From an uncultured Chloroflexia bacterium (GTDB taxonomy: Bacteria; Chloroflexota; Anaerolineae; Anaerolineales; UBA4823): a stretch of DNA of 64,000 nt. Both the position numbers and the translations under genes were made by a program. The notes beneath the pieces are model-generated. The model was not told where the DNA came from. It did no database searches and saw nothing but the letters and a program-made list of their open reading frames with translations. The stretch lies in contig CAVSCE010000010.1 of NCBI GenBank assembly GCA_963726375.1, forward strand, positions 30,351 to 94,350, read 5' to 3'. Shown piece by piece: positions 6,881 to 61,700 of the stretch (its first letter is position 1; each line of letters begins with the position of its first letter).

Positions 6881-7471
6881 GATGGCAAAGCCAGGTGAAA
6901 AGCCTGCCACGTCAGCCAGGGTCCGCTGCCGCTCTTCACCGACTACTCCTTCGACAACCTGGGCGTCCCAAAGAATCCTGAGAACCCGATATATGTTGAA
7001 CATCCCGACTTCGTCGACCCGGGTCTGGGCGGTTTTTTGGAGGCGGCAGGTTATTCCGAGGCGGAATACATGGCGGAGTGGGGCAAGCACAAGGTGCCCA
7101 CCCTCCGCAACGTCGACATGCGGCCGATGCCGGATGCCGTCAAAGCCTTCGGGCACAACGGCTACTTCAAATCGCTGGAAGGGATCGTACACTTTTACAA
7201 CACCCGCGATGTCCTCCCGGTCTGCCCTGGGCATTACACGGAGGCCGAAGCCCTGGCTGCAAACTGCTGGCCTGCGCCGGAAGTTGCGGTCAACGTCAAC
7301 ACCGCCGAGCTGGGAAACCTGGGGTTGAGCATGGACGAAGAAGCGGCTCTCGTCGCTTACATGAAGACGCTCAGCGACGGCTACGTCCCTGCGCCGGTCT
7401 CGATGGATCGCTTCTGGGGCGAAGTCAATCTGAGCCTTGAAATGCTCTATCTGCCTTCAGTGCAGCACTAG
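6881..7471 (+). pseudogene. 5'-truncated di-heme cytochrome c peroxidase/MauG-like fragment
   Basis: DGKAR*KACH...FTDYSFDNLGVP...KVPTLRNV...FGHNGYFKSLEGIVHFYN...LVAYMKTLSDG; in-frame TGA at 6896; N-terminal part absent; ends LYLPSVQH. Confidence 0.75.
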
Positions 7472-7507
7472 CTTTTCCCTCTTTCTCTATCTTCTGATAA
7501 ATTAACC

Positions 7508-7540
7508 AGACCTGGCAGGTTTCTGAAACCTGCCAGGTCT
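7508..7540. terminator. Palindrome between convergent genes (REP-like or bidirectional terminator)
   Basis: AGACCTGGCAGGTTT-CTG-AAACCTGCCAGGTCT; a related hairpin lies at about 12817-12848. Confidence 0.65.
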
Positions 7541-7591
7541 TTGATTAGTAAAGTTGTCACTTCTCAACGTCGGAATGCTCCGACCTTCCAG

Positions 7592-10500
7592 CTATCTTTG
7601 CACCACCGGTAAATAGAGGTACTGCTGAAGATACTCCTCAACCTTTACGCTCATGGTATAGGTCTGGTTCAAATCCAGCCCTTCAACCGGAAACAGCTCC
7701 AGGTAGTAGCGGATTCCGTCTGGCGGCAGCGTGAATTCGCCGGTCTCGGAGCGGCTCTGCATCCCCTGCAGGGACGAATTTGCGAAAGGCGCCGGCTTGA
7801 AGCTCAAATTCTGGCTCAGCAGCTCCCCTGCGCCGGACTTCGTCCGCTCGACCACCTTCCCGCTGCTGTCCACGATCTGGGCGTAGAAGCCCGCCTGCGA
7901 GATCAGGTCGATCTGCTGTCGGTAAGCCGGATCGATAGTTCCGCCCCCGCACATCGCGCAGCCCGGGAGCGGGAAGCGGATCGGGCTGTCCCGGTTGTAC
8001 TTCAGCGTGAGCATTTTCAACATCTCCGTCATGATATCGACGTCGTCCTGGTCGCAGGCCCAGCCCTTCCCATCTCCGTCGATATCTCGCTGGTCGGGGT
8101 TGTAGGCCTCCCGGCAGTTGTCTGCCGCGTCCAGGATCCCGTCGTTGTCGTCGTCGTCGTCGCAGGAGTTGCCCTTGCCGTCCTTGTCTGGATCGCTGTT
8201 ATCCGTTCCGGAGAAATTCGGGCATAAATCGCAGGCGTCCCCGAACGGATCGCCGTCGCTGTTCGCCTGATTGGAGTTTGAAACCAGCGAGCAGTTATCA
8301 TACCAGTCGCTGACCATATCGTTATCGTCGTCGTTGTCGCATGCGTCGCCATTCCCGTCAGCGTCGGTGTCCAGCTGGTCGTGGTTGGTGACCAGCGGGC
8401 AGTTGTCCTGGGCGTCTGGGATCAGGTCGTTGTCGTCGTTGTCGTCGCAGGCGTCGCCCTGTCCGTCCGTGTTGGTATCGCTCTGGAGCGGGTTGCTCAC
8501 CAGAGGGCAGTTGTCCGCCGCGTCCAGGTCGCCGTCGTTGTCGTCGTCCGTATCGCACTCGTCACCCTGGCCGTCCTTGTCGGTGTTCATCTGGTCCGGG
8601 TTGGATTTCAGCGGGCAGTTGTCCTGGTTGTTGGAGACCTTGTCGCCGTCCTGGTCGGGGTCGACGTTATTCTCTGTCCCGTCGCAGTCCAGGTCGCCGT
8701 TCCCCAGGTCGACTGCGAAGTAGCCGTTGCGCACGTAGCAGAGGTGGTTGTTCGTGAAGCCGTTCGTGCCCTGCTGGGCCATCTCAGTCGCCGCCGCGAC
8801 CGCCGCGTTGCGGGCGTCCAGCATGCTCGCGTTCGAAGTCAGCCGCTTGAGCGTCTTGTAGAAAAGCACCCGCGCCCGCCAGATGCTGATCCCGCCTGAC
8901 GGGATACGCACGCCATTGAAATCCCCGCCCTCTGTGATGAGGTAGGCAGCCTTGTTCTGGATCCCGCTGTTTATGTGTACGCCGCCGTTGTCCCAGGCGG
9001 TGCCCGGCTAGGACTCTGATTGGTGCTGTTGTACCGGTCAGGCTGAACTGGCCAGGATTTCGTTGGATCAGCCATATCGCGCCACTGGCCGCCCGGGGTG
9101 TCTTCCCCAATCATCCACTCACCTTCCACAAATGCGCCGTTGATATCCGCAAAGCTCTCGTCCAGCACGCCGGATTGGTCCTTGTATACCAGGTCAGCAG
9201 TATAGTCGTTGACCCCGTGGCTGAACTCATGCCCCACAACATCCTGCGTTGCCTGACCGTCCCCAAATTCGAAGAAGTCGCAGCCTCCCAGCCAATGTGC
9301 GTTCGTCCAGTTGGTGCCGACGTTCATGTAGAATTGGATATCGTCCCCGTCGTCGTCGTAGGAATCGCGCCCCAGGTAGTTCTGCCAGTAGTTGTAGACG
9401 TTCTTGATGTAGTTGTAAGCGTTGATCCCTTCCTGGGTCGCGTCGCTGTTGCAGCCGTCCTCGTCGCACCAGTGGTCGTCGTCGGTCGTCCACCAGTAGT
9501 GGTGGCAGTAGTTCCCGGCCCCGGAGTTGTGGTTGACGGTCTCGATGTCGAGGTCAAAGCCCATCTTGCTGCGAGGCTGCTGGAAGCGCAGCCTGCCTGT
9601 GCTCGCGTCGATGTACAGCTCCTCCCCCCGTTCTGGCTGAGGGCGACCATCCAGGTCAGGTAGGTGCGCGGGTTATCGCCGTGGAACAGGCTGCGGTTCA
9701 GCAGCCTGAGCTGGTCCTCGGAGATGACGGCAGCTCCCGGCTCGCCGAGCGCCAGCGCGATCTGCCTGGCCCGCTCGGCGGGGATCTGCGGGGTCGGGTC
9801 CAGCCTCAGATCGCTCAGGTAGCTCCCGCTCAGCCCGGTGATGTGATCGCCCAGGAAATGGATGTTAATCTCGGACCCAAGCACCGGGATGCCCGCGTAG
9901 CGCTGGCGGAAGAACAGGTCAGCCTCGTCCTCCGACAGGCGAACGAGCTGCAGCTCTGTCTCCGGATCGGAGATCCGCAGCACGTCGGAATAGGACTGCG
10001 TGAACCACAGCGCCCGCCCGAGTGAATCGGTGTATACGGACGGCGGGGTGATATCGAATGATCCAAACCGCACCGCGCCGCTCTCGCCGAGCTGGATCGT
10101 CGCCTCGCTGCTCGAATCCTCGTTCAGGCGTTCAATCCCAGTCATCTGGCGGTCGTTAAGTTCCTGGTAGGAGCGCGGCGGAGGCTCGACGACCGGCGAG
10201 CATCTCACCACCAGCCGCGGCGGGGTGGCGGACTCCCGGCTGAAGAAATTGAAGTCCAGCTGCTCGTCCCCGGGGATCAGCGCCAGGCTGGTCGGGTGGA
10301 AGACCTGGGTTGCCCACAGGTTGACCAGCGTCGAGACGTCCACCCGCAGGTAGACCGGCTCGGTCTCGCTCCAGATCGGGCTGTAAGATTTCGTGCCAGA
10401 CTCGTATCCGGTCGGCGGCTGGTTGTCCCAGGTGACCGTATATTCATCCCACTCCTGCGGCAGGCTGGCAGTCCCGAGCAGCAGCGACTGAGATGGGAGG

Positions 10501-12647
10501 GGCGGGTGGCTCAGCGTCAGCTCCAGCTCGGCCGAGTGGATCACCGCCTCCGCCGGGATCCGCCCGTCCAGGTCGAACTTAAGAAAGCTTCGCGACACCG
10601 GGCTGCCCGGAGGCGGGCTGTGCTCCACAAACAGCACCTCTCCGCTCCCGAAGTTCGTGGACGGGTCGTACAGTGCGACGCTCGCGTCTGCGCTCGGGTA
10701 GAATACTCCGCCGCAGCCTTCCAGCTCTCCTGGCTGGTCCCAGAAGCGGTTGCCGGTCAGGTCCTTGCTTTCCAAAGGGATCTCGAATTGGATCCAATCT
10801 GACGACTGAACGACACCGGTTGGAGATGAGGCCGCTTCGGAGATGTAGCCAGGCAGGTTGGTCTCGACGATGCTGTAATACTAATAACCCGCTGGCGCCT
10901 CCAAGTCCAAACCAGCCGTCCTCATTCGACAATGTCCTTCCAATCAGCGCCCCCTGCTGGCCTGCACTGTTCGAGCCGTACAGGCTGACAGCCACCCCAG
11001 CCAGCGGCGTCGAATTCGTCGCCCTCCAGCCCTTCGAAGACCATTCCCTCGATCTGGTTCGGCTGGGATTCCGGCAGGTCCCAGAACCGGTTGCCGGTCA
11101 GGTCTTTGCTTTCCAGCGGGATCTCGTACTGGATCCAGTCGTCGCTCAGCACGCTGCCCTCCGGTGAGAAAGCCGCCTCGGAGAGGTATCCCGCCGGGTT
11201 CGTCTCGACGATGCTGTAGTACTCATAACCCGCCGGCGCGATCAACCCGAACCATCCGCCGGGGACGGTCTGCGTGTTTTCCAGCAGCGCCCCCTGCTGG
11301 CCGGCGTTGTTCGAGCCGTACAGGCCGACCGTCACCCCCTCCAGCGGCGTCGTCTCGTCGCCTTCCATCCCTGCGAATACCTTACCCTGGATCCGGTTCA
11401 GCCGGACGATCTCGCCGTAGATGTTCTCACCCTGGCTCACATCCCGGCTGTCCTGCCAGGCGATCAGGTAGCTCAGGTCCCCGCCGGCGGCGATCGTCGG
11501 GTGCATCTCCATGCTTCCCAGTCCGGAGCTGAGAATCTCGGCTTCAGGCATTGAGCCATCCGTGCGGACACGCCTGCGGTAGACGTTGACATCCTCGCCC
11601 GGAACATTCATCTGCCAGGTGACCATGAAATCAACGGCGTGCGATTGAAACGCGACCTGCGGAGAGCCGCGGTAGTATGTCCCCAGCTCGGCGATCGCGA
11701 AATTCCCCTCGACCAGCGCCCCGGACGCGCCCACCCGCTGTCCGTAGATGTCTCTGTCCGTGCGCTCGTCCTGCCAGACGACCAGGAATTCGTCTTCGGC
11801 CTCGTTGTACGCCAGCTGCGGGAGCATCTGGTCGGCTGAGGCGCTGGAGATTGTAATTGGGCCGCCGGTCAGCTCGCCGACAGCGCTTGCCCGCTGCCCG
11901 TAGATGTCATAATTCCCGTATTCAGTCTGCTGGTGCCAGACCACCAGGTATTCGCCGGTATTTGGGTTGACGCTGACCGCCGCTCCAGATTCGTCGATAG
12001 AATCGTCGGCAATATAGAACCCGCCCCCGGTTATCGGCGCTCCATTTGCATCCAGCCTCTGGGCGTAGATCTCGGACTGGTCGGCCTGGTAGCGCTCCCA
12101 TACCGCCAGGTACTCCCCGGAAACCGGGTTGTAGACCAGGTCGGGGAGGCTGATCGTCAGCCGTGGAGGTGTCGACCGCGATCTCTGAGCCGATGGTGGC
12201 TCCGCCGTCGCTCACCCGCCGTGCGTAGATGTTGTGGTCTGTCTCGCTGAAATAAGCGTCCCAAATGACCAGGAATTCGTAGGATCCGGTCTTGTACGCT
12301 GCGGAAGGATTGTCCCGCGGGGGCGGGGTGGAGCCCGAAAGCGTAATCGGACCATAGACCGGATTCCCTTCGGAGTTGACGAATTGGGCTTCGATCGTAT
12401 GGTAAAAAACATCCCCCAAGTTTATGGTGCGACCATAGGTCAGCAGAAAAAAATCAAGGTCGGGGTCATAACCCAGGTCGGGGCTGTACTCATCTCCGCT
12501 GAAGCTTGTGAGCGGAACAGCGCCCTCGGGGATCAGGCTGGAGTTTTCGGCTGATCGAAATGCGCCCCCTGAAGCGGGGAGTGCCAGAGATACACAAGCA
12601 AGCAGAGCAAGTCCAAAAAGCTGCCTGAAAGCTCTTGCGGTCTTCAT
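7592..12647 (-). CDS. Giant secreted multidomain metalloprotease: propeller-like repeats, 2 Ig-like ~110 aa repeats, DNRLRE-like domain, M4 (thermolysin) peptidase, thrombospondin type 3 repeats, C-terminal YLP motif (several frameshifts)
   Basis: Signal peptide MKTARAFRQLFGLALLAC; joined from ORFs 11922..12818, 10922..11944, 9324..10775, 8971..9564, 7592..8911; HEFSH plus DESFAD zinc motifs; DNGGVHINSG; repeated DxDxD..DNCP; ends YLYLPVVQR. Confidence 0.8.
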
Positions 12648-12900: not shown

Positions 12901-15900
12901 TTAACTCAACACAACCGGCAGGAAGATCCCATCGATCTGATCCGGCATGACCCAGAACCGGTTTCCGGTCAGGTCCTTGGCCTCGAGCGGAGCGGCGTAC
13001 TGGATCCAGCCGCCGCTCTGCACGTCCCCCGCCGGGGACGATGCCGCCACGGAATGGTACCCGGGTAGGTCCGTCTTGACGATTGCCGTAGTACTCGTAG
13101 CCCGCCGGGGCGATCAATCCGAACCAGCCGTCCGCGTTGGTCAGCGTGCTCCCCAGCAGCTCGCCCTGGACCCCTGCGCTGTTCGAGCCGTACAGGCTGA
13201 CGGTCACCCCTTCCATCGGCGTCGATTCGTCGCCCTGCAGCCCTTCAAAGACCGATCCCCTCGAACCGGTTCGGCTCGTCCCAGAAGCGGTTGCCGGTCA
13301 GGTCCTAATGCTTCAAGTGGGGCGGCGTACTGGATCCAATCGCCGCTCAACACCTCCCCTCATAGGGGACGATGCTGCCACAGAACGATACCCCGGCGGG
13401 TTGGTCTCGAGGATGCTGTAGTACTCGTAGCCCGCCGGCACATCAAGCGTGAACCGTCCGTCCGGCTGGGTCAGCGTGCTCCCCAGCAGCTCGCCCTGGA
13501 CTCCGGCGCTGTTGGAGCCGTACAGGCTGACGGTCACCCCTTCCATCGGCGTCAATTCGTCGCCCTGCAGCCCATCGAAGACCACCCCCTCGATCCGGTT
13601 CAGCCTGTCCCAGAACCGGTTGCCGGTCAGGTCCTTGTTCTCGAGCGGAGCGGCGTACTGGATCCAGTCCTCCGTCAGAACGGTCCCATCCAGCGAAACT
13701 GCAGCCTCAGAACGGTATCCCGGCGGGTTGGTCTCGACGATGCTGTAGTACTCGTAGCCCGCCGGCACATCAAGCGTGAACCGTCCGTCCAGTTGGGTCA
13801 GCGTGCTCCCCAGCAGCTCGCCCTGGACTCCAGCGCTGTTTGAGCCGTACAGGCTGACGGTCACTCCTTCCAGCGGCGCCGTCTCGTCGCCCTGCAGCCC
13901 TTCGAATACCGCCCCCTCGATCCGGTTCAGCCTGTCCCAGAACCGGTTGCCGGTCAGGTCCTTGGCCTCGAGCGGAGCCGCGTACTGGATCCAGTCTGCA
14001 GACTGAACGACGCCGCCTGTTGACGATGCTGCTTCCGAGAGATAGCCTGGCAGGTTGGTCTCGACGATGCTGTAGTACTCGTAGCCCGCCGGGGCGATCA
14101 ATCCGAACCAGCCGTCCGAATTGGTCAGCGTGCTCCCCAGAAGGTCGCCCTGGACCCCTGCGCTGTTTGAGCCGTACAGGCTGACGGTCGCCAATTCCAG
14201 CGGGATGGTCTCGTCGCCCTGCAGCCCCACGAATACGTTGCCCTGGATCCGATTCAATTCGACTTTCGGCGTGTCCCAGAACCGGTTTCCGGTCAGGTCC
14301 TTATTCTCGAGCGGGGCTGTGTATTGGATCCAGTCGTCGTTTCGCACTCCCCCTCCGGCGAGAAAGCGGCCTCGGAGCGGTATTCCGACGGAGTGGTCTC
14401 GACGATGCTGTAGTAATCGTAGCCTGCCGGGGCGATCAATCCAAACCACCCGTCCAGGTCGGTCTGCGTGCTCCCCAGCAGCTCCCCCGGTTGACCGTAG
14501 TTGTTTGAGCCGTACAGGCTGACGGTCACCCCTGCGAGCGGGATGCTTTCGTCGCCCTGCAGCCCTTCAAAGACTGCCCCTCGAACCGGTTCGGCAAATC
14601 CCAGAACCGGTTTCCGGTCAGGTCCTTATTCTCGAGCGGGGCTGCGTACTGGATCCAGTCGCCGTTCGGCACGCTTCCGCCGGCGAGAAGCGGCCTCGGA
14701 ACGGTACCCCGGCGGGTTGGTCTCGAGGATGCTGTAGTACTCGTAGCCCGCCGGCGCGCGACAAGCCAAACAAGCCGTCCAGGTTGGTCTGCGTGCTCCC
14801 AAGCAGCTCGCCCTGGACCCCTGCGCTGTTCGAGCCGTACAGGCTGACGGTCACTCCCGCGAGCGGGATGCTTTCGTCGCCCTGCAGCCCTTCAAAGACT
14901 GCCCTCGAACCGGTTCGGCGAGTCCCAGAAGCGGTTGCCGGTCAGGTCCTTATTCTCGAGCGGGGCGGCGTACTGGATCCAATCGCCGCTCAGCACGCTT
15001 CCAGCCGGCGAGCTGGCCGACCTCGGAACGGTACCCCGGCGGGTTGGTCTCGACGATGCTGTAGTACTCGTAGCCCGCCGGCGCGACGAGTTCAAACAAG
15101 CCGTCCAGAGTCGGTCTGCGTGCTCCCAGCAGCTCGCCCTGGCCTACTGCGCTGTTCGAGCCGTACAGGCTGACGGTCACCCCTGCGAGCGGGATGCTTT
15201 CGTCGCCCTGCAGCCCCTCAAAGACCGTCCCTCGAACCGGTTCGGCCTGTCCCAGAAGCGGTTGCCGGTCAGGTCTAACTCTTCGAGCGGGGCGGTGTAT
15301 GGATCCAGTCGCCGCTCAGCACGCTTCCAGCCGGCGAGATGGCCACCTCGGAACGGTACCCGGCGGGTTGGTCTCGACGATGCTGTAGTACTCGTAGCCC
15401 GCCGGTGCGACGAGCTCAAAAAAGCCACCTAAGTCGGTCTGCGTGCTCCCGAGCAGGTCGCCCTGGATTCCTGCGCTGTTTGAGCCGTACAGGCTGACGG
15501 TCACCCCTGCGAGCGGGAAGCTTTCGTCGCCCTGCAGCCCCTAAAAGACCGCCCCCTCGAACCGGTTCGGCCTGTCCCAGAACCGGTTGCCGGTCAGGTC
15601 CTTATCCTCGAGCGGGGCGGCGTACTGGATCCAGTCGCCGCTCAGCACGCTTCCAGCCGGCGAGATGCTGCCTCGGAGCGGTACCCCGGCGGGTTGGTCT
15701 CGACGATGCTGTAGTACTCGTAGCCCGCCGGCACAACGAGCTCAAACAATCCGCCTAGGTCGGTCTGCGTGCTCCCCAGCAGCTCGCCCTGGACTTGCTG
15801 CGCTGTTCGAGCCGTACAGGCTGACGGTCACCCCTTCCATTGGGATCAATTCGTCGCCCTGCAGCCCATCGAAGACCGCCCCCTCGATCCGGTTCGGCCT

Positions 15901-18375: not shown

Positions 18376-18399
18376 TTATTTTCTATGGGGATGATTTAT

Positions 18400-23080: not shown

Positions 23081-23090
23081 CCCGAGCGCT

Positions 23091-24807: not shown

Positions 24808-25282
24808 ATGAAGAAGATTGCATTGGTTTCAATATGGATATTTGTCATGCTCTTTTCGGCTGTGCCTGTCTCGGCGCAGGAGCCAGAACCTTTACCAGAA
24901 ATGAAGACACTCTATTTGCCGACCGTGATACCGCCCATGTGAAACAATAACGGCCGGAGCAGCAAACTGTATGTCTCAGTATTGTCAGGGAAACTCTTAT
25001 GCTGGCATAACAGTTTCTCCGCCAGGAATAAGTTTTTCTGTAAGCGAGCAGGTCTATTATCTGGGGGAAGAAATGCCGTCGCGTAGCAGCGGTGCGTATT
25101 CGAGCGCTGAAGGATGGGGCGGGATTTATTTCGATGTCCCATGGCCGCCAATTGCAGGGAGCGAAGTACGGGTGGCGATAACCTTCGAGAATGGCTGCGC
25201 GGCCGAGTACACAACCCAATATGTGTGTCGAATTCCTCCCCCGCCATGGGAAGACCAAGGCTGTGATCCATTAGGGGAGTGA
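24808..25282 (+). CDS. Small secreted Cys-framework protein, paralog 1 of 4 (frameshift near 24935)
   Basis: MKKIALVSIWIFVMLFSAVPVSA-QEPEPLPEMKTLYLPTVI, continuing into ORF 24971..25282 (SQYCQG...GSEVRVAITFENGC). Confidence 0.7.
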
Positions 25283-25283
25283 C

Positions 25284-25767
25284 ATGAAGAATTTTGCAGT
25301 TGCAATTATATTGATTTTTACTTTGCTCGATGTCTTCTATACCTGTCTCGGCGCAGGAGCCAGAACCTTTGCCGTCCATGAAGACGCTCTATCTTCCGGC
25401 AATTAGCCATCAGTGCGAGATCATTACTCTCGTAAGTGCCGGCCCTCGAACTTCTCAGTACGGCCAGGGGAACTCGTTTGCGTACATGACTATGGAGCCC
25501 ACATAACAGGGAGGATGGACCAAGGGTCGTAAGCGATCAGGCTTTTTATCGCGGCGAAGCAGTGCCGCACATGTCTGCTCAACTGGTCAACTATTTGGCA
25601 ATGGCGAAAATACAATGTATATGGAGGTTCCTCGCCCGCGCCTCGAAGGGAGCGATGTCGAAATCATCCTCGAGTTCGACAATGGCTGCAGTGTTGACTT
25701 GCACAAAGGGTATCACTGCATCGATCTGCCCTATCCTTTTGATATCTTTGAGTGCGATCAGCCGTGA
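25284..25767 (+). CDS. Small secreted Cys-framework protein, paralog 2 of 4 (frameshifted, possibly a pseudogene)
   Basis: MKNFAVAIILIF...QEPEPLPSMKTLYLPAISHQC...FYRGE...GSDVEIILEFDNGC...ECDQP, assembled across frames. Confidence 0.6.
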
Positions 25768-25780
25768 TCGACCCGTAGAG

Positions 25781-25827
25781 AATTGAAAAGAGGCCGGAGA
25801 AATCCGGCCTTTTCTTTTTGTTATAAT
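25781..25827 (+). promoter_or_regulatory. Repeated spacer: intrinsic terminator fused to an extended -10 promoter
   Basis: AAAAGAGGCCGGA-GAAA-TCCGGCCTTTTCTTTT then TGTTATAAT; near-identical copy at about 26313-26359. Confidence 0.7.
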
Positions 25828-25851
25828 CAATCTAAGAATTTAGGCGGCGAC

Positions 25852-26295
25852 ATGAAGAATTCCGCAGTTGCAATCATCTTGATTTTTGCTTTGCTCGTGT
25901 CTGCTGTGCCAGCCCCGGCCCAGGAACCGTTCCCCCTGCCAGAGAACAACTTGCTTTTCTTTCCTGCCGTGATCCGCCCTTGCGAGACCTTCTGGATAGA
26001 AGTCGCCGGCAACTGCACGCACCAGTATTGTATGGGATCTAGTGATATCTTTTTTCATGTAGATCCTCCTGGAGCGGCCAGAATTATCGACACGCAGGTT
26101 TTCTACCTTGGCGAAGTTTTCCCTGCTGTACTGGATCCGTATTATTATTACTGGGGCACATATACTATATTTTTCTCGCCTATGACTGTCGTTGTCGGGA
26201 GCGAAATCCAGGTTGTGCTGTTCTTTGAGAACGGGTGCAAGGCTGATGCTACCACTGTATATACGCACAGTGACTTTTGCAAATGGTGCCCGTAA
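25852..26295 (+). CDS. Small secreted Cys-framework protein, paralog 3 of 4
   Basis: Intact ORF MKNSAVAIILIFALLVSAVPAPA-QEPFPLP...LFFPAVIRPC...NCTHQYC...GSEIQVVLFFENGC. Confidence 0.8.
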   Translation: MKNSAVAIILIFALLVSAVPAPAQEPFPLPENNLLFFPAVIRPCETFWIEVAGNCTHQYCMGSSDIFFHVDPPGAARIIDTQVFYLGEVFPAVLDPYYYYWGTYTIFFSPMTVVVGSEIQVVLFFENGCKADATTVYTHSDFCKWCP

Positions 26296-26312
26296 TGAAT
26301 TGGAAAAAAATG

Positions 26313-26359
26313 AATTGAAAAGAGGCCGGAGAAATCCGGCCTCTTCTTTTTGTTATAAT
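26313..26359 (+). promoter_or_regulatory. Second copy of the terminator plus extended -10 spacer
   Basis: AATTGAAAAGAGGCCGGAGAAATCCGGCCTCTTCTTTTTGTTATAAT. Confidence 0.7.
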
Positions 26360-26377
26360 AATTATTGCAGGAGTGAC

Positions 26378-26848
26378 ATGAAGAATTTCAGCTTTGTAAT
26401 CATCTTGATTTTTGCTTTGCTCGTGTCTGCTGTGCCTGCCCAGGCGCAGGAGCCAGCTCCGTTACCAGAGATCACTTCGCTTTATTTTCCGGTAGTAAAC
26501 CGTCCATGCAGCGAGACTTTCGATATTGGCTTTGCCGGGGACTGCCCGTACCGCCAATATTGCAAAGCGGCTTCTGTTGCTACCGGGGTGTTGCCGCTGC
26601 CAGACGGTGTTCATGTCGTAGCGGACAAGATCTATTACCGTGGAGAAGAAGTGCAGCTCCATAGACTCGAACTGGATCCTGGCCCTGACGACTATTATTG
26701 GGAGTGGTTCCAGCTTCCATTATCGGCATCGCCGGTCATCTACGGAAGCGAGGTGATAGTTGCGTTGAGCCTTGATAACGGATGCAATCTAAAGGCAACA
26801 TCAGAATATTTACCCAGCCCCAACCCTTGGAGCACTTGTACCTTATGA
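26378..26848 (+). CDS. Small secreted Cys-framework protein, paralog 4 of 4
   Basis: Intact ORF MKNFSFVIILIFALLVSAVPAQA-QEPAPLP...LYFPVVNRPC...DCPYRQYC...GSEVIVALSLDNGC. Confidence 0.8.
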   Translation: MKNFSFVIILIFALLVSAVPAQAQEPAPLPEITSLYFPVVNRPCSETFDIGFAGDCPYRQYCKAASVATGVLPLPDGVHVVADKIYYRGEEVQLHRLELDPGPDDYYWEWFQLPLSASPVIYGSEVIVALSLDNGCNLKATSEYLPSPNPWSTCTL

Positions 26849-31452: not shown

Positions 31453-31637
31453 ACCCCAAACCGCGCTATAATCAAACATCCATCTTATTTTGAACGAACC
31501 AACCGAATAATTACTGGTTTCTCATTAGGGAAGAGACTTAGGGCAGGAGTTGCGTGTGCTTTGATCGATGCCCGCATGGGCGTCTGTTTTCGTTCATTAT
31601 TCTTCCAAATTTGCGTCTCGCTGCAAGGAGGGAAGCT

Positions 31638-45470: not shown

Positions 45471-46441
45471 GTGTTAGATGTTCACCAGCTCAATGTCTTT
45501 CTTGCTTCGGCGGAAACGCTGAATTTCACCCGCGCTGCAAAACAGCTCCATATGACCCAGCCGAGCGTCAGCCAGCACATCCAGGGGCTCGAGCGCCATT
45601 TTGACCTGCCGCTCTTCATCCGCAGCGGGCGCAACCTCGAGCTTACCGATGCAGGGTTGGCGCTGCTTCCCTTTGCCCGGGAAGCCGTCTCGCTCTCGGT
45701 CCGGATCGACGAGACCATGGAATCCCTTTAGCGGGAACATTTACGGCCACCTGATCGTCGGCTGCAGCACCACGCCCGGTAAATATATCCTGCCTCATCT
45801 TCTGGTGCTTTTTCACCGCATTTTTCCTCGGGTCCGCGTCACCTGCCAGGTCTCTCCCCAGGTGGATGCGCTGCGCGGCCTGTCTGAAGGCGTAGTCCAT
45901 TTCGCCTTGTATAGCATGGAGCCTGAAGGCTTTCGGATATCGAATCGATCGCTTTTGTGCGTGATCCGATCGTCTTGATCGCGCCGCTTGACCATCCCTG
46001 GGCGTGGGAGGGCGAAATCGAGCGAGGTGAGCTTCTGAAAGCAGATTTCATCATGCGTGAGTCGGATTCCGGGACGTTCAGCGCCCTGCGCGAAGCGCTT
46101 GCCGAGCACAACATCTCCACCGGCGAGCTGAACACGCTGATCACGCTTGGAAACGCCGAAGCGATCGCCCTGGCCGTTCAGGAAGGGATCGGGGTCGGCT
46201 TTATCTCGCAGATGGTCATCGACCGGCTGTGCAGCGGGCGGGTCGCCAAAGTGCCAGCGTCCGCGGCTCTGAATATCAGCCGGAAAATCTACATCGGCCA
46301 GAACCGCCGCCGCCCGGCGACCGGCGCCCAGGCCGCCTTCTGGAGCTTCCTGACCGAATTCAACGCCGAGCAGCTCGAATTAAGCAGCTGGCGATTGAAC
46401 CGTGGATGTTCGAACCGCACTCAGTGGAAACGACCGTTTGA
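45471..46441 (+). CDS. LysR-family regulator (CysL/YeiE-like; frameshifted)
   Basis: NFTRAAKQLHMTQPSVSQHI HTH; GCSTTPGKYILP; RESDSGT; LGNAEAI..AV..GIGVGFIS. Confidence 0.9.
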
Positions 46442-46449
46442 GGCAGTAA

Positions 46450-47573
46450 ATGAAAAAACTTCCAAAGCCAAATCTGCGCACATTCAACGCCCTGCTCGCC
46501 GGAGCCCTGGTTTGGGTGCTCTGCATGGCCTTTTCGGCTCACGACCCGGCAGTGGCTGTCTGCGCCAGGCTCGCAGCCGCTCCTTCAGGACGGAGGGGAC
46601 CGCGACCCCCGCGACCCCGCTGCCCCTGCAGACGCCCCTGTTCAAACTGAGCCGCCGAAAGCTTGCGCCGAATGCCACCCCGACATCCAGGCTTCCTGGG
46701 TGGACAGCCCGCACGCCCAGGCTTACGCCGACCCGCTCTTCGTCGAGAGCTGGGATTCGCTGGGCGAGCCCGGTGAGTGCCTGGTCTGCACACTACAGGC
46801 TACGATGTCACAACCGGTGAGTTCACTGCAGATGGGTGTGGCTTGCGAAGACTGTACGTGACCGTTGAAGGTCATCCCCCCGCGGTGGTCCCGGTCCTGG
46901 CGGACACCGAATACTGCGGCACCTGCCACTCCACCACGCTGGGCGAATGGCGGCTTTCCGGTCATGCCGCTGAGGATGTCGGTTGTTCCGACTGCCACAA
47001 TCCGCACAGCCAGCAAGCTCTTTTTGAAAATCCAGACGAGCTGTGCATCAACTGCCATAAAGATGATCTTGGCGAGCACAAGGACGACGTCCACATCCAG
47101 AAGGGCATCACCTGCATCGAATGCCACGCCCTGGTCATGCCTCCGGCAGACCCACCCCAGGACGGGTTGGTCCCGACCGGTCACACCTTCACGATCACCC
47201 CGGATACCTGCGTGGCGTGCCGTCAGATGCCCTCCACAGTGGGACGCCGCTCCCGGGCTATGAAGCCGGCGCAAGCGGAGTTGCCGAGATTCTCCGGGTC
47301 ACCTCCACCCTCCCGACGCTTGTCGCCGAATACACCGGTGGGACCGTTGAGTCGGGCGTCTCGGCCGCACAGACCATCCAGGCGCTCGAAGCAGCCCTTG
47401 CCAGTGCCCGCCTTTCCACGCTCTTCCAGGGCGGAATGATCGGGCTGGTGCTTGGTGGTTCGACCGCCTTCTTTATCGGCCGCAATCAGCGCCGGGCTTT
47501 TGAAGAAGTCGCCGAAGCCGAAGATGAAGACGAGCCGGATTGGGAAAAGGAAGAAGGGTCCGAAGATGAGTGA
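46450..47573 (+). CDS. Membrane-anchored multiheme cytochrome c, about 8 hemes (frameshifted)
   Basis: Signal peptide; CAECH, CGTCH, CSDCH, CINCH, CIECH plus disrupted CLVC, CEDC, CVAC; C-terminal TM helix GGMIGLVLGGSTAFFIG. Confidence 0.8.
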
Positions 47574-50649: not shown

Positions 50650-53112
50650 ATGGTTCGCAAATTCACAGCTGTACTTTCGCTTTTCTCGGCATTGCCCTGG
50701 TCATCGGTTTCATCTTAGCCTTTTCCAACTCAGCCGCTTCTGCAAAGGAAACTGAGCCGCCGGCTGCTCCCAGCTGACATTTCAGGTGAGTCCGGGCGCT
50801 CAGACCGACTTCGGTCAGCAGCGATCCCCGGAAAACGTCTTGATTCACGCGGTCGGAGGCGAATCCGCAGGTTCTTGATCCTGCTATTGCTTATGACACA
50901 GCCAGCGGGGAAGTGATCATGCAGATTTACGAGCCTCTCGTCGAGATGAACCGGGAGAAAACGGATGAATTTATCCCGCTCCTCGCCACCGGCTGGACGA
51001 TTTCCGGGGACGCGAAAACCTACACATTCACCATTCGCACTGGGGCGAAATTCCACGATGGGGGCCCTCTGACCGCTTCTGACGTCGCCTATTCCTTCCA
51101 GCGCGGCATCCTCCAGGGCGGACAAATTCACCCCAATGGTTTTTCACTGAACCGCTCCTCGGGATGGGAATAATGGATGTATGCAATCTGCTCGATCCGA
51201 GCGTTTGCAATAACCGAGATTCATTGCAGACTTATCAAACAAGCGCATACTTCCCAGGTGGCTGGTGTCTGCTCGACGGTGAAAAACGCAGTCGTCGCGA
51301 ACGATAACGCCGGCACGGTCACATTCAATCTGGCCAACGCCTGGGCGCCTTTCATGAACGACATGGCGGGCACCTCGTGGGTCGGTCATCGATCGCGAAT
51401 GGGCGATTTAGCAGGGCGCCTGGGATGGGGATTGCAGCACATGGCATAACTATTATGCCGTTTCGAATTCCACCTCGCCTCTCCGCAATATCACGAACGG
51501 CACGGGGCCATTCAAGCTCGACCATTGGACTTCGGGGGTCGAGCTGGTGCTGGCTCGGCACGACTCCTATTGGAACACCGTCCCGCTCTGGCTTGGCGGA
51601 CCATTCGGCCTAGCCAGGTTTGAAACGGTCAGGCGAACGGTAGTAGCCAACAGCGCAACACACGCTCAGATGCTTCTGAATGGTGACGTTGATCTCATCC
51701 ACAGCGTGCCAACCTACGCGGGTGATTTTGACGATGCGACGCTGTTTCATTACACGCAGCCGGATGGGATCACCCCGACCCTGGTGAACCCGAGGTGGCG
51801 TTTTAAAAAAGTACACAGGCGGCCTGTCGACTTCGGCGACAGATGCGTTCTTCACCTACAATATCGTGACCGGTGGGCCCCGGAACTATGTAGGCAGCGG
51901 TACCTGGGATGGTCACGGCATCCCGACGGATTTCTTTACCGATATCAACGTCCGAAAGGGGTTCAATTACGCTTTTGATTGGGCTTCATACAAAAACGCC
52001 ATCTACGGCGGCTCTGGTGTCCAGCGCACAGGCCCGATCATCAAGCCTCTCCCGGGCTACGATGAAAACCAACCGGTCTATACCTATAACCCGACCCTCG
52101 CAAAGCATGATCTTGACCAGGCCTGGGGCGGATTGGTCGCGACGAACGGTTTTTCACTCACTGTGGCTTATAACAATCGGATAATTTGGCTCGCCAGAAG
52201 ATCGCCGAGATCCTGAAAGAGAATATCGAAGCCATGGATCCAAAGTACCATGTCAAGATTATGGGTTTATCCTATACGGATTTCAGCGCCGACATGGAAA
52301 TAACAGCCGCATTCCAATCTCGATAAACGGATGGATACAGGATTTCCCTCACCCGCACAACTGGGTTGTCCCATATCTGGACGGGACCTACGCTTCCCGT
52401 CAAAACATGCCGTCGACGATGCGGAGCATGTACCATACGATGATCTATAATTGCGTCGCGATGATCGGCGACGCCGCCAATGACTGCTATGAAGGTATTC
52501 AGGACCCAGACCTACTTGGAAACCCCCGATATATTTCTTGTTCAGGCGAACGCAGCGGAGTTATGTGTCCGCCAATATTCAGAGTTTTTACCTAAACCCG
52601 GGCCGGTTCGGGGGTGCGCTACTACGATCTGTACAAAAACCCGCTCCCGAAACTGTGACCGTCCAGCCCGAGGTCGAGCAGACGATGGAATGCACCCCGT
52701 CCGTTGGCGTCGCCGCGACCGCATCAATCCCGGCGGGCTCTGTTCCCGAAGAGATCCAGATCGTGGCGATCCCCGAAGCGAAGGCTTATTCTGAGCCAGC
52801 TGAATTCTTGTTAGGCGGGATGTCAACTTCGACCTGCAGGCCTTCCTCCCGGATGGAACACTGATCCCTGACATGACCTTCTCAAGCCCCATCACGATCA
52901 CGATCGCCTATGGGACGGGTGCGTTCACACCCGGGCAGGAAACCGAGCTGGTTTTGCTCTATAGGGACGGCGCTAATTGGGTCGACGCGGCTTGCGGAGC
53001 ATATGACCGCGACCTGGTGAACCACACACTCCAGGTGCCCATCATTCACCTGAGCACCTTCGGCCTGGCCGAGCCGAGCGGCCTGATCTACCTGCCCGCC
53101 ATCCGGCACTGA
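50650..53112 (+). CDS. Family 5 (peptide) ABC solute-binding protein fused to a C-terminal beta domain with HLSTF and YLP motifs (many frameshifts)
   Basis: LDPAIAYDTASGEVIMQIYEPLV, YTFTIR.G.KFHDG..LTASDV.YSF.R, NGTGPFKL, VRKGFNYAFDW; ends HLSTFGLAEPSGLIYLPAIRH. Confidence 0.75.
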
Positions 53113-54478: not shown

Positions 54479-54480
54479 CC

Positions 54481-55329: not shown

Positions 55330-55358
55330 ATTTTCTTTGCCAGAGATGAACGCAGAAA

Positions 55359-57288
55359 CTATTGATTACTTATAAACCTCGCCAGCGCGAGCAGCGGGAA
55401 ATAAATCCGGTAAAGATCGTAGCGCAGGTAAAAAACGCGCGGGAAACCCGTCCCGGTGTATTCCGGCTCGATCCAGTTCCCGTCCGCGGTCTGTGTGTCC
55501 AGCAGGTAGCGCACCCCGGCCTGGACCCTCGGATCAGCCGCCTCACCCGCCGCGATCAGCCCCTGCAGCACCCAGGCAGTCTGCGAGGCGGTGCTATTCC
55601 CCTGCCCGCGCAGGCCAGGATCGATATACGTCATGCAGCTCTCGCCCCAGCCGCCGTCCGGATTTTGGCGGCCGAGCAGCCACTCCACCGCCCTGCGGAT
55701 ATACGCCTGGCCCATATCCTCCCCGGCTGCCCTCAGACCGCTCAGCGCCAGACCGGTGCCGTACAGATAGTTGACCCCCCAGCGTCCGTACCATGCCCCG
55801 TCGGCTTCCTGGGTCTGCTTCAAATAAGCCACCCCTCGCCGGCGGCTCTCCTCGCCCTGGTTGATCTCCGCCAGGAACTCCAGCGCGTGGGCGCTCACGT
55901 CGGCGCAGGTCGGGTCCAGCGGGGACATGAAATCCGCGAACGGTGTGTGGCTCAGAGCCTTGTGATCGTTGTCCCTGTCGAACGCGCCCCAGCCGCCGTC
56001 TTTGGACTGCATCCGCACCACCCAGCTGAGCGCCCGTTTCACCGCCGCCGACCGCTTCAGCACCTCCTCTCCGCTCAGATCGACCCGCAGCAAGGCGCGC
56101 GGCACCAGCGCGCTGTCGTCCAGGTCAGGGTACCAGTCGTTGACGAACTCGAACGACCACCCGCCCGGCTCGCCTCCCGGATCCTTCACCTTCCAATCGC
56201 CTTTCAGCCGGATTTCCTTCTCGAGCAGCCAGCCAGCCGCCCGGACCAGCTGCTTCTGCCCGGCAGGGATCCCCGATTCGCGCAGCGCCAGCGCTGCCCA
56301 GGCGGTATCCCAGACCGGCGATGTGGCCGGCATGAACCGCAGCGTCTGCTCGTCCTCGATCAGGAAATCTTCGAAACCCTCGATCCCTCTTGCAAGTACC
56401 GGGTGCTCGAGCGGGTAATCCAGGCTCCTGAGCGCAATCAGCGAATAGATCCATGGCAGCAGGATCCCTCCCCAGCTTCCGTCGGATCTCCTGGTGCTGG
56501 ACGATCCAGGCCTCCACCATCCGCAGCGCCTTTTCACGCCTTGGAGCCGTCTCGAGCCTGTCCCAACGCTTAAAACCGGTCCACGATCTGAAAGACGCCC
56601 CGCCAGGAGAACGGATTGCGGACCGCAGGAAGTTTGTAGCGCTTCGGACCGGACGGCTCCAGGTACAGCTCCTCCACCCGCGCCCTTCCGGTACCTTGCA
56701 GACCGGCTTCCGCGTCAGCACCACCGTAAGCGCCATCAGCGTCTCGCGTGACCAGCTCGCAAATTCGTAGATGTTGAAGTAGAAGTCGATCGGCAGGAAG
56801 ATGATCTCCGGTGGGGCGGATGGCGCCCCGCGGTAATCATACTGGCCGAAAACCGCCAGCCAGATCTTCGTGAACACCTTGGACTTCGTGATCCCGCCCT
56901 GGGAGCGGATGAACTCGCACGCCCGCTCCATGCGCCTCTCGTCCCTCGGGAGCCCGCCCAGCTTCAGGCCGAAATAGCACTGGATGCTTACATCCAGGTC
57001 GCCCGGACCGCCGAAATAAGTCGGCCACGAGCCGTCCGGATTTTGCTTGCTCAGCACATAGGCGATCGCCTTGCGCTGCCGCTCGGGCTCTACCCAGCCA
57101 AACAGGTAGTACATCAGCGGGATGTACCCCGCCGTGACGCTCGCGTCTGCCTCCAGCTCGCCCAGCCAGAAGCCCTCCGGGTTCTGGCGCTCCAGCAGGG
57201 CCGCCTGCGCCCGGCGGATCGCCTGTGCAACTCGTTCGTATTGGCTCATGTCGTCCGCTTCGAGCTGTGCCAAATTCATGGGGAGCAT
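55359..57288 (-). CDS. shc: Squalene-hopene cyclase (frameshifted near 56480-56670)
   Basis: QW repeats (QNPEGFW, QNPDGSW, QSKDGGW, QEADGAW, QTADGNW), SPVWDTA, YPDLDDSA (DxDD), GRWGVNYLYGT, TGTGFP..FYLRY. Confidence 0.93.
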
Positions 57289-57398
57289 CCTTTTCGTAAA
57301 GCGGCGGGGGTAATTCAGCTATTATAATTTATGGATAAGATTTGTAAAGAATTCTCGCTGAGGTTAAGAGGATAGTTCGGCCATACTTTCAATAAGGG

Positions 57399-58160: not shown

Positions 58161-58204
58161 TCGTGCGCTGTGCAAAAATAGCCTGATGTATAATCAAATC
58201 AAGT

Positions 58205-58690
58205 ATGCCGGCCCCACTTCTCCTCACCAAGCTCTATATCCCCCCGCCTCGTCCAGAGCTTGTCCCCCGCCCGCGCCTGATCGAGCGCCTGAACGCGGGC
58301 CTGGACCGCAGAGCTTTCGATCATCTCAGCCCCCGCCGGCTACGGCAAGACCACCCTGCTCAGCGAATGGATTTCCTCCCTAACTCTTCCCCTCTCCCAC
58401 CGGGAGAGGGGTCAGGGGTGAGGGCAGGGAGGCCCTGGCTTTCGCTGGACGAATCGGACAGCGACCTGGTGCGTTTCACCACATATCTGATCGCGGCGTT
58501 ACAGACAATAGAGGCGACACTTGGCGCAGGAGTGATGGCCGCCCTCCAGATCCCCTTCGGCCCGGCCCTCCGCCAAATCGATCCTGACCGCGCTGCTCAA
58601 CGAGATTTCTGCCGTCCCAGAGCGCCTTATCCTGGTCCTGGATGACTACCACTCGCTCAATTCCCAACCGGTGGATCAGGCCCGCGCTAG
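58205..58690 (+). pseudogene. Truncated MalT-like (LAL) regulator, N-terminal ATPase part only
   Basis: LLLTKLYIPPPR..LVPRPRL, ISAPAGYGKTTLLSEW, WLSLDESD, LVLDDYH, then a stop against a convergent gene; in-frame REP-like insert at 58387-58425. Confidence 0.8.
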
Positions 58691-58704
58691 ACCATCCAGG
58701 GATG

Positions 58705-61700
58705 CTATTTCCTCACCAGCGGTAGATAAAGAAAAGTCTGCGGCAGACCGCCCAGCACGGCGAAGCGACTGAGGTGGTACAGGCTGATGGTGAGCGTGTG
58801 ACCGACAGTGTCCAGCGTGGCGCCTTGAGCCTGCCAGCGGCTCATCGGCCTCGTTCCAGACGTACAGGTCCAGCGTCGCTTCGTCCAAACCGTTCAGGTC
58901 GTCGCTGGAGTAGTGGATCACCAGCGTAAAGGGGTGGGCGAAACTCGTCACCAGGTTGCCGGAGCCATCCCGGGCGACCAATGAAAACGGCACGCCCGCC
59001 AGGCCTAGGCCACCCGTCAAGTTGTCCGGTGCGTCGGGCGTCCAGTACAGTGTAAGCGGCGCACTGACCGCCCAGCGGGGAAGGTGGTGGTGGTGGTTAA
59101 CGCGTGCTGGCGATCACTGACAACACGCCGCCCGCCGCGGGGGTGAGCGGAGCGCTCAGCCAGGTGTTGACCAGGCGAATACGCTGATTATTCATATCAG
59201 CCACGAACAGGCGACGCGGCCGGTCGATTGCGACCCCCACGGGATAGCTAAATTGGGCTTGCAGCCCATCCTGAAAGCCTGCTACATTGCCGGTTACGGT
59301 AGTGACCAGCCCCTGGGGAGTGATGCGCCGCAGACGATGGTTGCTCTGGTCGGCCACCCACAGCACCCCCTGGGTGTTCGCGGCCAGCCCCCGGACGGCA
59401 TCACGAAAGAGGCTGCGTTACCCCAACCATCCTGGCTGCCCGCCTGCCCTGAACCGGCCAGAAGGCTAGAGGACCCCGGCGGCGGTCATCTGGCGGATTT
59501 TCTGCGAGGCTTCGGCGATATACAGGGTGGTCCCGTCAGGCCCAACGCCAGGGCGCGCGGTTCCTGGAAATAGGTGGAATTGTTGGGCCAGGTGCTGACC
59601 ACCCCGTCGGGGGTGATCTTGCGGATGCGACCGTTCATCGTATCGGCCACGTAAACGTTCCCCCCGGCGTCTACCACCAGCCCCAGCGGGTACATGAATT
59701 TCGCCGTCGCGCCGGCGCCGTCCACCCACCCGGGCGTTCCGCTTGCCCGCCAGGGTCGTGACCGCCCCGGCGGGGGTGATCTTGCGGATGGCGTTGTTGT
59801 CGGTATCGGCGACATAGACGTTGCCCGATGTATCCGTGGCGATGCCATGCGGGTTAGCGAAACGGGCTGCTGTACCGTTGCCATTCTGGAAACCCCAGAC
59901 AGAGCCGGCTAAAGTGGTCACCGCGCCGGCGCCATCGATCTTGCGGATGCGCTGGTTGACGCTATCCACGACGAACAGGTTGCCGGAGCTATCCAGCGCC
60001 ACGCCGGACGGGTTATTGAAAACTCCATCCAGCGCCGGCCCGTTGTCGGCGCCCGGCACGCCCGTCCCGGCGTAGGTAGTCACCGGCAGCGCTCCCGGCG
60101 TCGGGATCGGCTCGAAGTGCGGGGTGAGACAAATGTTGCTGTTCAGCACCAAGACCAGCGGGTTCTGGCTGCCGCTGATATATCTCCGCTCCAGCTGACG
60201 AAGCGGTAACCGGGGTCGGGGGACAGGGGTTAGGCGTAGCTGCGTGCCCATCGGGTAGGGCGGGCTGAAAAGGCCGCCGGCGTACACATCCACGTAACCG
60301 CCGGTGACGGGCGAGATCTGCGGGATATAGAGCGTATCGGAGCGGCGGGCGGCTAGCTGCACCACGGACGAGGCGGCGCTCTCGTGCCCGGCGGCGTCCA
60401 GGGCGGTGACCTGCCAGGCGTACAGGTGGTCCAACGTGACGGTATCGGTATAGACGTACCCGGTGACTGTTCCGGGGCTGCGGAGCGTGAAGGCCAGTCC
60501 GGGCTCGGCACGCCGGCGCGGTAACCCGTCACATCGGCTTCGGCGGGCGGGTCCCATTCCAAAGTCACGGTTTCTTGCTCCATCCAGGCGGTCAGCCCGG
60601 CAGGAGCGGTGGGGGCTGCATCAGGTGGGGGTAACCGGACCCGCTGTAGCGGGCGTTCCATCCGCCAGGTTGCTGCCCACCGGAACCAGGCGGTACCGGT
60701 AGGCGCTGCTGTTGGTGACGCTCCGGTCCACGAAACCGGAGCGGTTGATCCATGCCAGCGTGGCAAACTCACCTGCAGACCCGGGAGCACGCTCCAGCCG
60801 CCAGGCCCAGCGCAGACGGGTCTTCATCCACGAAGCTGATCACGACCTTTCCATCGCCGGGGGCGGCGGCAAACGAGACCGGCGCCGCAGCCGTTCCGGG
60901 CAGCAGCGGCGGGGCAGCCAGCACTGCGGCGGTCTGGGAGCTGGCATTCCCGGCGGCATCACCAGCTCTACCCGGTACCAGTGGGGGACGGCGCCGGGGT
61001 GCGTATCCAGGAAGACCGGCTGGGTGAGCAAGGTGGTGGGTGATCAGCTGCGAGGGGCTGGTCTCAGTCGTGCTGGTGTAGACGCGATAGCCAGCCAGGT
61101 CACCTTCCTGGTTAGGCTGCCAGCCGAGCAAGACTTTGCCCGTGGCTGCGATGGCGCGCAGCCCGAAAGGCGTTTCGGGGGCAGCACTGGCAGAAAAAGT
61201 GAGGTCGAGCGTGCGCCGATCGCCCGTATTGATCTGGACAGCGGCGCGCAGCCGGTTGCTGCCCTGATTCAGCAGGTTTTGCGGCGCAACGGCGTAGGTG
61301 GTCTGGCTTACGCCGGGGAGCAGCCCGTTGGTGAACAACCGCCCGTTCAGCCGCCCTTGCAGGCTGCCGGGCAGGATCGTATTGGTGGAGGTGTAGTACA
61401 GGCTCACCGTGGGGGTCTGGGTGGTCAGGACGGTGCCCTGGCTCAGGTTAGTGGTCAGCTCGAAGGGCAACCCCAGGCCAGCGGGACAGGCTGGCGGGGG
61501 TGGGATAGCCGGTGGAGTCGGCGGAGATATCGCCCTGCGTACCGCCGGGGAGCAACATGCTCTGCCCGGCGTCGTCGGTGATGCGGGCAGCCGCCTGCCC
61601 CAGGTTTCGACGTGCAGGACACTGGCGCTGTCGACGGTGAATACCAGCTGGCTGTTGGTCAGGGCGCTATCGCCCGTCGCCAACGGCGAATTCGCCTGGC

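Follow-up and report, generated by a model that had tools for sequence, protein, structure and literature searches.

We describe a short peptide, the YLP-box, that recurs at the termini of exported proteins encoded in a 64,000-nucleotide stretch of an uncultured Chloroflexota genome of the Anaerolineales (hereafter the window: C10:30351-94350 of a 4.10 Mb, 14-contig assembly with the genome label G000). With moderate confidence, we regard the YLP-box as a signal that retains (anchors) Sec-exported proteins of some Chloroflexota on the cell surface. In the mechanism that we propose, the protein would cross the membrane by means of an ordinary signal peptide, and an exposed, unstructured tail would then be recognised at the envelope and would hold the protein on the cell. 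This tail would be either the last eight residues of the protein or a copy situated 9-24 residues past the signal-peptide cleavage site. A sequence-only reading of the window had suggested a sorting or anchoring role for the tag, and such a role is still the best reading of it.

The pattern searched, [LI][YF][LF]P[VLAST][VI], has exactly ten matches in a six-frame translation of the window, all at positions listed in the sequence-only reading, and the observation of the motif is confirmed. In six of the ten, the match is followed by exactly two residues and then a stop codon. The resulting C-terminal 8-mers lie at 7445-7468, 34716-34739 and 53086-53109 on the plus strand, and at 7595-7618, 12904-12927 and 58708-58731 on the minus strand. 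The remaining four, all on the plus strand, are found 9-11 residues past the end of an AxA-type signal peptide (24910, 25387, 25954 and 26480), and the claim that the tag may stand at either end of a protein is borne out. The reversed peptide pattern, used as a control, has no match in the window, and 60 shuffles of the window gave 0.27 matches on average and never more than 2, with no match two residues from a stop. For at least six of ten random matches to fall at exactly this distance, the binomial probability is 3e-8. Genome-wide, 33 of 68 matches are found exactly two residues from a stop, compared to 1 of 19 with the reversed pattern (P = 1e-35). The enrichment of the motif at termini over background is therefore seen with the shuffle, reversed-pattern and stop-distance controls alike. 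Synonymous codons vary between the copies of the box, which indicates selection at the level of the peptide rather than the DNA. As the sequence-only reading had it, the tag is devoid of a transmembrane helix: only two residues follow the hydrophobic pair, and in-frame translation past the stop codon of the C-terminal tags, as in readthrough, gives more stops and no helix. An acidic enrichment upstream of the C-terminal tags was looked for, and none was seen.

The functional unit can be described as the 8-mer [LIVM][YFW][LFIM]P[x][VI]x[RKH(NS)], the eighth residue of which is retained in the N-terminal copies. When the fifth position was restricted to V, L, I, A, S, T or M, and the last one to R, K, H or N, the genome contained 70 matches, of which 50 were at most 4 residues from a stop and 11 more were 9-24 residues past a signal peptide, with few internal ones. 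A looser pattern retrieved 56 C-terminal tags, and in 47 of these nothing follows the eighth residue. All 56 have V, I or M, never T, behind L-P-x, and no Gly comes next. The eighth residue is R or K, followed across the phylum by 0-8 unconserved residues. The contigs of G000 fall into two composition classes (C1, C3, C4, C10, C11 and C12 versus C6, C7, C9 and C13), with a GC content of 0.57-0.59 and 0.50, respectively, and a tetranucleotide correlation of about 0.6-0.8; the estimated contamination is only 3.6%. On the small GC-rich contigs we find 37 of the 56 C-terminal tags.

The two window genes ending at 53112 and 58705 provide the material for our strongest argument in favour of an anchoring function of the box. 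In both of them the box is preceded by a domain of about 150 residues, which matched no Pfam or NCBIfam model. In the first gene, encoding an SBP_bac_5 solute-binding protein, this domain is read in two frame pieces (52619-53085, plus strand), with a His-Leu-Ser turn at 53047-53055. In the second, it is read in frame-broken pieces upstream of the box (58732-59083, minus strand), and the turn, at 58768-58776, again reads His-Leu-Ser (HLS). A phmmer search with a window copy of the domain against 1.84 billion representatives returned 545 matches, and the following figures refer to the best 150 of these. A His-hydrophobic-Ser/Thr motif is present in 136 (HLS in 103), and 129 have a Cys ahead of the His. 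From the Ser to the end there are at most 45 residues (median 21) in 112 of the proteins, with [YF]LP 11-18 residues after the Ser. A box-like 8-mer terminates 127 of them, while four (P0106, P0131, P0141 and P0143) have instead of the box a tail of 55-68 residues with a membrane helix and a basic, Arg-rich end. Motifs such as T-L-P-P-K-S precede the membrane helix in these four. The model of P0047, a close homologue that shares 88% identity with the window copy, has a predicted local distance difference test (pLDDT) score of 91.3 and shows a beta-sandwich, in which HLS residues 131-133 make the turn between the last two strands (124-131 and 134-140), and the tail is free of structure (pLDDT 65-73). 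Foldseek returned ZU5 and GAIN domains as the best matches of the domain model. With VIA-align, the ankyrin ZU5 domain gave a Z of 11.6 (root-mean-square deviation 2.5 A over 125 residues). Among GAIN domains, Z was 9.5 for CD97, 8.0 for BAI3 and 6.4 for latrophilin, with GPR56 also matched within the range 9.5-6.4. The Pfam models GPS, GAIN and ZU5 had no match among 43 members of the domain family at E up to 1, and no sequence-level match to the domain was found among PDB chains.

The GPS site of GAIN domains is described as His-Leu/Ile-Thr/Ser, cut ahead of the Thr or Ser (PMC9539791). Brogan & Rudner report, in the main text of a recent preprint, that bacterial MAIN domains with this fold undergo self-cleavage at HX(S/T), after which the fragments remain together, and that virtually all MAIN proteins are composed of a signal peptide, ectodomains, the MAIN domain and a surface anchor, the latter being a sortase signal, a wall-binding domain or S-layer homology (SLH) domains (bioRxiv 10.64898/2026.05.12.724683). 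The term 'Chloroflex' is absent from that main text. The proteins ending at 53112 and 58705 resemble MAIN proteins, the prototype of which is YfkN, in their GAIN_B/ZU5-like beta-sandwich with an H-hydrophobic-S/T turn before the last strand, and in the order of signal peptide, ectodomain, MAIN and terminal signal. They differ in their anchor module, which here is the YLP-box and not a sortase signal, a wall-binding domain or SLH. Since other bacteria place a sortase signal or a membrane anchor at the position of the box, the analogy argues for the box occupying, in Chloroflexota, the anchor slot behind the MAIN-like domain, and hence for its being an anchor. By the same analogy, the HLS domains of the window are probably self-cleaving. 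The cut would leave the ectodomain sitting non-covalently on a stub, in which the last beta-strand is followed by a spacer and the box. The predicted C-terminal fragments are of 19 residues for the SBP_bac_5 protein (53053-53109, plus strand) and 21 residues for the NHL propeller protein ending at 58705 (58708-58770, minus strand); the stub would be anchored, and the ectodomain could be shed. Among 78 scanned homologues, three combine a YfkN-like 5'-nucleotidase with the domain and the box, and nine are SBP_bac_5 proteins like the window gene. Monoderm cells must keep their solute-binding proteins tethered. The MAIN-like domain was detected in 14 of 45 genomes.

The N-terminal form of the box offers a comparison with another type of anchor. 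In the 11 proteins of the genome that carry it, the 8-mer directly precedes the folded domain and is itself preceded by a short Gln/Glu/Pro-rich (acidic) leader. One of the carriers is an FGE-sulfatase-type protein, and its N-terminal box is kept in the orthologues of G005 and G008, within family f1 only. In other families, FGE-sulfatase homologues at 12 or more of the 30 loci examined have a lipobox and a Pro/Thr linker at the place of the box. Judging by this comparison, the N-terminal box module stands where relatives have a lipid anchor. For the propeller protein at C8:1017742, homologues were found in family f1 only, in 3 of 44 genomes, which leaves no anchor comparison to be made.

Beyond the window, the carriers of the box in this genome include three S8 subtilases, a second M4 protease, a C25 peptidase with DUF11, two cohesin proteins, a Kelch propeller, and PKD and Ig proteins. 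Ordinary Sec signal peptides are present on the carriers wherever the N-terminus is intact, and in clean assemblies the tagged genes are intact and end in the box. One family, composed of a signal peptide, a cohesin and the box, was aligned with 41 homologues (44-79% identity), all with the box at the extreme end and with an invariant Pro. These homologues are named Anaerolineales bacterium, and AlphaFold predicts the tail of the family as unstructured (pLDDT below 50). The distribution of the tag was assessed by counting a DNA pattern for the box plus a stop codon against a reversed-pattern control. The counts differ widely even inside the order: they were 10-60 in the genus of G000 and 8-14 in the sister family f11, and at background in family f10 (16 genomes). 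Families f26 and f42, from elsewhere in the phylum, are also rich, with up to 46, and include 99-100% complete genomes with 11-46 tags; most other families have none. The statement that such tails are common in Chloroflexota is in agreement with these counts. The genes around tag clusters in clean genomes are housekeeping genes.

The tag is not a new motif. NCBIfam already curates it in two entries, NF053834 (ultrashort_CTERM) and NF050076 (sort_motif_YLP), both named "YLP-box putative sorting motif-containing protein". For the tail at 7592, the scores are 15.2 bits with NF050076 (cut-off 15) and 14.5 bits with NF053834 (cut-off 10), and the tail at 58705 matches NF053834 with 16.4 bits (cut-off 10), its 14.3 bits with NF050076 being below the cut-off of 15. 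For the four other C-terminal and the four N-terminal copies no hmmscan match was reported; the search filters drop weak short matches, and the peptides fit the 8-mer pattern. The motif is the same as the curated one, and the six C-terminal window copies, like it, lie at the extreme C-terminus of exported Chloroflexota proteins. The four N-terminal copies are positionally unlike the model, and the name 'CTERM' does not imply a position after the signal peptide. The YLP-box is thus catalogued yet unexplained, as these are database entries only, which name neither a mechanism nor a reader. Neither they nor the literature that we found name a characterised partner, which is what the earlier reading had said.

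A candidate for the reader of the box is a Peptidase_C25 protein of the gingipain/PorU family. In the 45 chosen genomes, at E 1e-20 or better, C25 was found in 18 of 22 tag-rich versus 4 of 23 tag-poor genomes, and in none of the eight f10 genomes of this set. In a larger sample of 251 genomes, where tag-rich means seven or more pattern matches, it was present in 40, namely in 23 of 26 tag-rich genomes versus 17 of the 225 others. The majority of these 17 come from tag-positive families and have low counts. C25 was not found in any of 14 control genomes. By comparison, 39 of 45 genomes, among them all 8 from f10, have the control family DUF11, and 34 of 43 have FGE proteins; neither tracks the tag. 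Both residues of the catalytic dyad, His and Cys, show hardly any variation across 18 aligned C25 domains, and the box ends 12 of 13 complete C25 orthologues, often 16-21 residues past the catalytic domain. A complex prediction for the C25 domain with a 43-residue box-bearing tail (score 0.03, mark 0.32) speaks neither for nor against binding. As regards the genomic neighbourhood of C25, in family f42 a sortase gene directly follows the box-tagged C25 gene at two loci, L092 (G112:C7:102000-106400; Pfam E 5e-26) and L097 (G139:C241:18800-22323; 9e-25). A giant sortase-domain gene is located about 5 kb from a C25 gene in G000 and G001. In family f26 (L093 of G121 and L103 of G165), the C25 gene adjoins an Amidase_3-type N-acetylmuramoyl-L-alanine amidase that is a lipoprotein (with SH3 in the case of G121), as well as an amino-acid-kinase-like gene; one resembling the latter lies beside the tag cluster in G253 (L007).

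The known system that C25 brings to mind is Bacteroidota's T9SS (type IX secretion system), whose cargo carries a C-terminal domain (CTD) of roughly 80 residues. PorU is described there as a gingipain-like sortase that removes the C-terminal signal and attaches the cargo to anionic lipopolysaccharide (A-LPS), and that is itself a cargo of its own system with its signal left uncleaved (PMC5445135). The two cases are alike in that a C-terminal signal is found on many unrelated exoproteins, and in that a C25 peptidase co-occurs with it and bears the signal itself, as PorU does. They differ in that the T9SS CTD is a folded beta-sandwich domain read by an outer-membrane translocon, whereas the YLP-box is an unstructured linear tail of eight residues. 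We know of no acceptor such as A-LPS in Chloroflexota. A tentative extension of the anchoring proposal, in which we place clearly less confidence, is that the YLP-box may be the substrate signal of an undescribed sorting system in monoderm-type Chloroflexota. The reader would be the surface-exposed, box-tagged C25 cysteine peptidase, which, bearing the same box and possibly acting like a sortase, would read the tail and fix exoproteins to the envelope, as a counterpart of the T9SS PorU without an outer-membrane translocon. In combination with MAIN domains this could provide a shear-releasable display on a stub of about 20 residues.

Other candidate machinery was considered as well. The genome encodes seven copies of CPBP (Rce1-like) proteases, four of them on tag-rich contigs; homologues of the one at C12:42884-43687 are absent from the tag-rich genomes G089, G248, G208, G192 and G002 and present in tag-poor f10, which eliminates them as the reader. 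There are two adjacent CPBP pairs, at G000:C10:99461-100863 (5 kb past the end of the window) and at C12:42845-44582, whose distribution does not track the tag. Cohesin as a receptor was rejected, with the family in only 4 of 45 genomes and dockerin matches below threshold, and so was the MAIN-like domain as an obligatory receptor of the box, given its distribution and its absence from G253 (35 tags), G261, G031, G076 and G112. SLH domains were not found in G000, and no scaffold or receptor of the kind suggested by the sequence-only reading emerged among cohesin, the MAIN-like domain and SLH. The box resembles PEP-CTERM and PGF-CTERM signals, the substrates of exosortase and archaeosortase, in having a Pro-containing C-terminal motif with a basic end on many unrelated exported proteins of one lineage. 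It differs from them in having no transmembrane helix, and PF09721 (exosortase/archaeosortase) had no match in the 91%-complete G000. Each of the 21 relatives has sortases, irrespective of its tag count, which makes their presence or absence uninformative. In G000, at C13:114556-116243, a sortase gene comes right after a small protein that ends with P-N-T-G, a membrane helix and RRK, a canonical pair, and at C9:648577-651948 a 1124-residue open reading frame combines DUF11 repeats with a terminal sortase domain. Lgt is encoded in all five genomes tested, with no inverse relation to lipoproteins.

Several points weigh against anchoring by the box, or against C25 as its reader. To our knowledge, there is no established way in which an eight-residue tail without a membrane helix could hold a protein. 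We also found no paper that names or prints the YLP-box motif or deals with sorting signals of Chloroflexi. Of the 22 tag-rich genomes searched, only 11 have the MAIN-like domain, and G000 has it in three genes, so the slot argument extends to the other carriers by analogy. With regard to C25, tag-rich genomes in which it was not detectable are G248 (97% complete, 10 matches versus 0 in the control), G002 and G016. Conversely, it is present in the tag-poor G019 and genus g76, where the counts did not rise when the pattern admitted two further codons behind the box. The genomes are related, and Fisher tests of the association between C25 and the tag therefore overstate it; C25 may be a conserved cargo only. 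As for the chemistry, the 47 tags out of 56 that end exactly at R/K would offer no leaving group to a transpeptidase cutting there, and a sortase-like cut at the N-terminal copies would transfer just the short leader.

These difficulties lead to the alternatives, the foremost of which, although we find it rather unlikely, is non-covalent docking. Here the tail would bind a groove of an abundant surface scaffold, such as an S-layer, a sheath or a receptor, in either orientation and with no processing. This would agree with a tag that works at either end, that in most copies closes the protein and offers no leaving group, that is free in the models, and on which no transpeptidase has been shown to act. 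A candidate scaffold has nonetheless failed to emerge, given the distributions of cohesin, SLH and the MAIN-like domain reported above. Moreover, the central Pro would be unusual in an added beta-strand, and a non-covalent 8-mer would form a weak link in series with the MAIN strand. Of the beta-strand docking tag that the sequence-only reading had envisaged, the sorting or anchoring role stands, but the beta-strand mode is not supported, the AlphaFold tails being unstructured in both the cohesin family and P0047. The box might otherwise serve no anchoring purpose and be a maturation or protection element, for example a site of cleavage after R/K by which leaders at the N-terminus and extensions at the C-terminus would be removed, or a Pro-centred stop to exopeptidases, with C25 as a cargo or as the maturing protease. 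One could invoke for this the R/K at the eighth position followed by a few unconserved residues phylum-wide, the short acidic leader ahead of the N-terminal copies, and the many carriers that are proteases themselves. We nevertheless judge it unlikely, as it leaves unexplained the box in the MAIN anchor slot, the transmembrane anchor that replaces it in four homologues, the replacement of the lipobox, and the box on solute-binding proteins; a mere cap would also need neither six conserved positions nor a restriction to certain lineages.

A further alternative is a degenerate sortase signal, with L-P-x-[VI] for L-P-x-T and processing by one of the three sortases of the genome. Like the box, LPXTG signals have at the C-terminus an L-P-x core ending in a beta-branched residue, with a basic residue behind it, and they are carried by the same kinds of exoproteins. 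Signals of this type sit where the box does in MAIN proteins of other phyla, as the preprint describes for B. subtilis YfkN (10.64898/2026.05.12.724683). The genome has three sortase genes for about two canonical signals, and two f42 genomes, as well as G000 and G001, have a sortase gene near C25. This reading is nevertheless quite improbable in our estimation. Canonical signals with a transmembrane helix and a basic tail coexist with the box in the genome, one of them beside its own sortase, and sortases are found in the tag-poor relatives too and do not track the box. Unlike an LPXTG signal, the box has neither a Thr-Gly nor a membrane helix, amounts to the whole signal in eight residues, and is also found near the N-terminus. 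Finally, chance, or a DNA-level repeat such as a terminator or a recombination site that translates into the peptide, deserves practically no credence. It would be in line with the position at gene ends only, but it is refuted by the shuffle and reversed-pattern controls, by codons that differ between the copies, and by conservation of the motif at 44-79% protein identity, to which may be added the further stops, and no helix, past the stop codon.

Having weighed these alternatives, we return to the window, in which the proteins bearing the putative anchoring signal are diverse. The sequence-only reading had described a shared terminal tag on unrelated secreted proteins, and we find it on an M4 protease, an NHL propeller, a LamG/Ig protein, a solute-binding protein, a di-haem fragment and four paralogues. 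LYLPSVQH with its stop (7445-7471, plus strand) ends a MauG/di-haem peroxidase-like fragment, with an open reading frame at 7037-7471 and a weak match to the TIGR04039 MbnH family (E 0.0013). LYLPVVQR (7592-7618, minus strand) ends a frame-broken thermolysin-like M4 protease at about 7592-10880, with FTP propeptide, CBM96 and TSP3 repeat modules. IFLPVVLS (12901-12927, minus strand) is found at the end of a multiply frame-broken CarboxypepD_reg/SdrD_B-like repeat protein (about 12901-14566), and IYLPVIKK (34716-34742, plus strand), 17 codons past a frame break, at that of a Laminin_G_3/Big_12/Big_5 protein (about 31542-34742). IYLPAIRH (53086-53112, plus strand) terminates the SBP_bac_5 gene (about 51174-53112), and LYLPLVRK (58705-58731, minus strand) the frame-broken NHL-repeat propeller gene (about 58705-60620). 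The N-terminal copies belong to four tandem orphan paralogues of about 150-170 residues at 24808-26848 on the plus strand. The two at 25852-26292 and 26378-26845 are intact, the other two frame-broken, and each of the four consists of a signal peptide, a Q-E-P-x-P-L-P-x4 segment, the box and a small Cys-containing domain. They belong to no Pfam family, and in a set of 5.8 billion proteins, searched at near lengths, the query matched itself only.

The tags at 34742, 58705, 12901 and 53112 are located 17-94 codons past a frame break. The earlier reading had counted three tags as visible only after frame correction, and there are at least that many. Frame breaks are frequent across the window, for example at 45556-46817, 55362-57288 and 12901-14566, and the gene ending at 12901 has about six frame changes in 300 codons. 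Since unrelated housekeeping genes are split too, among them those of a LysR regulator and a squalene-hopene cyclase, the assembly appears to be error-prone in general, and frame corrections are justified. The frame breaks thus look like products of an error-prone assembly rather than marks of pseudogenes.

Our findings add three elements to the catalogued motif: the box in the anchor slot behind MAIN domains, its N-terminal form in place of lipoprotein anchors, and a conserved C25 peptidase as the prime candidate for its reader. Per genome, the YLP-box tags secreted enzymes, adhesins and solute-binding proteins by the dozen, and the Chloroflexota that bear it are widespread, mostly uncultured inhabitants of wastewater, soil and sediment. 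If the tag is indeed an anchor, the prediction of protein localisation would improve for the whole phylum, and if its reader becomes known, it might yield a very short display tag.

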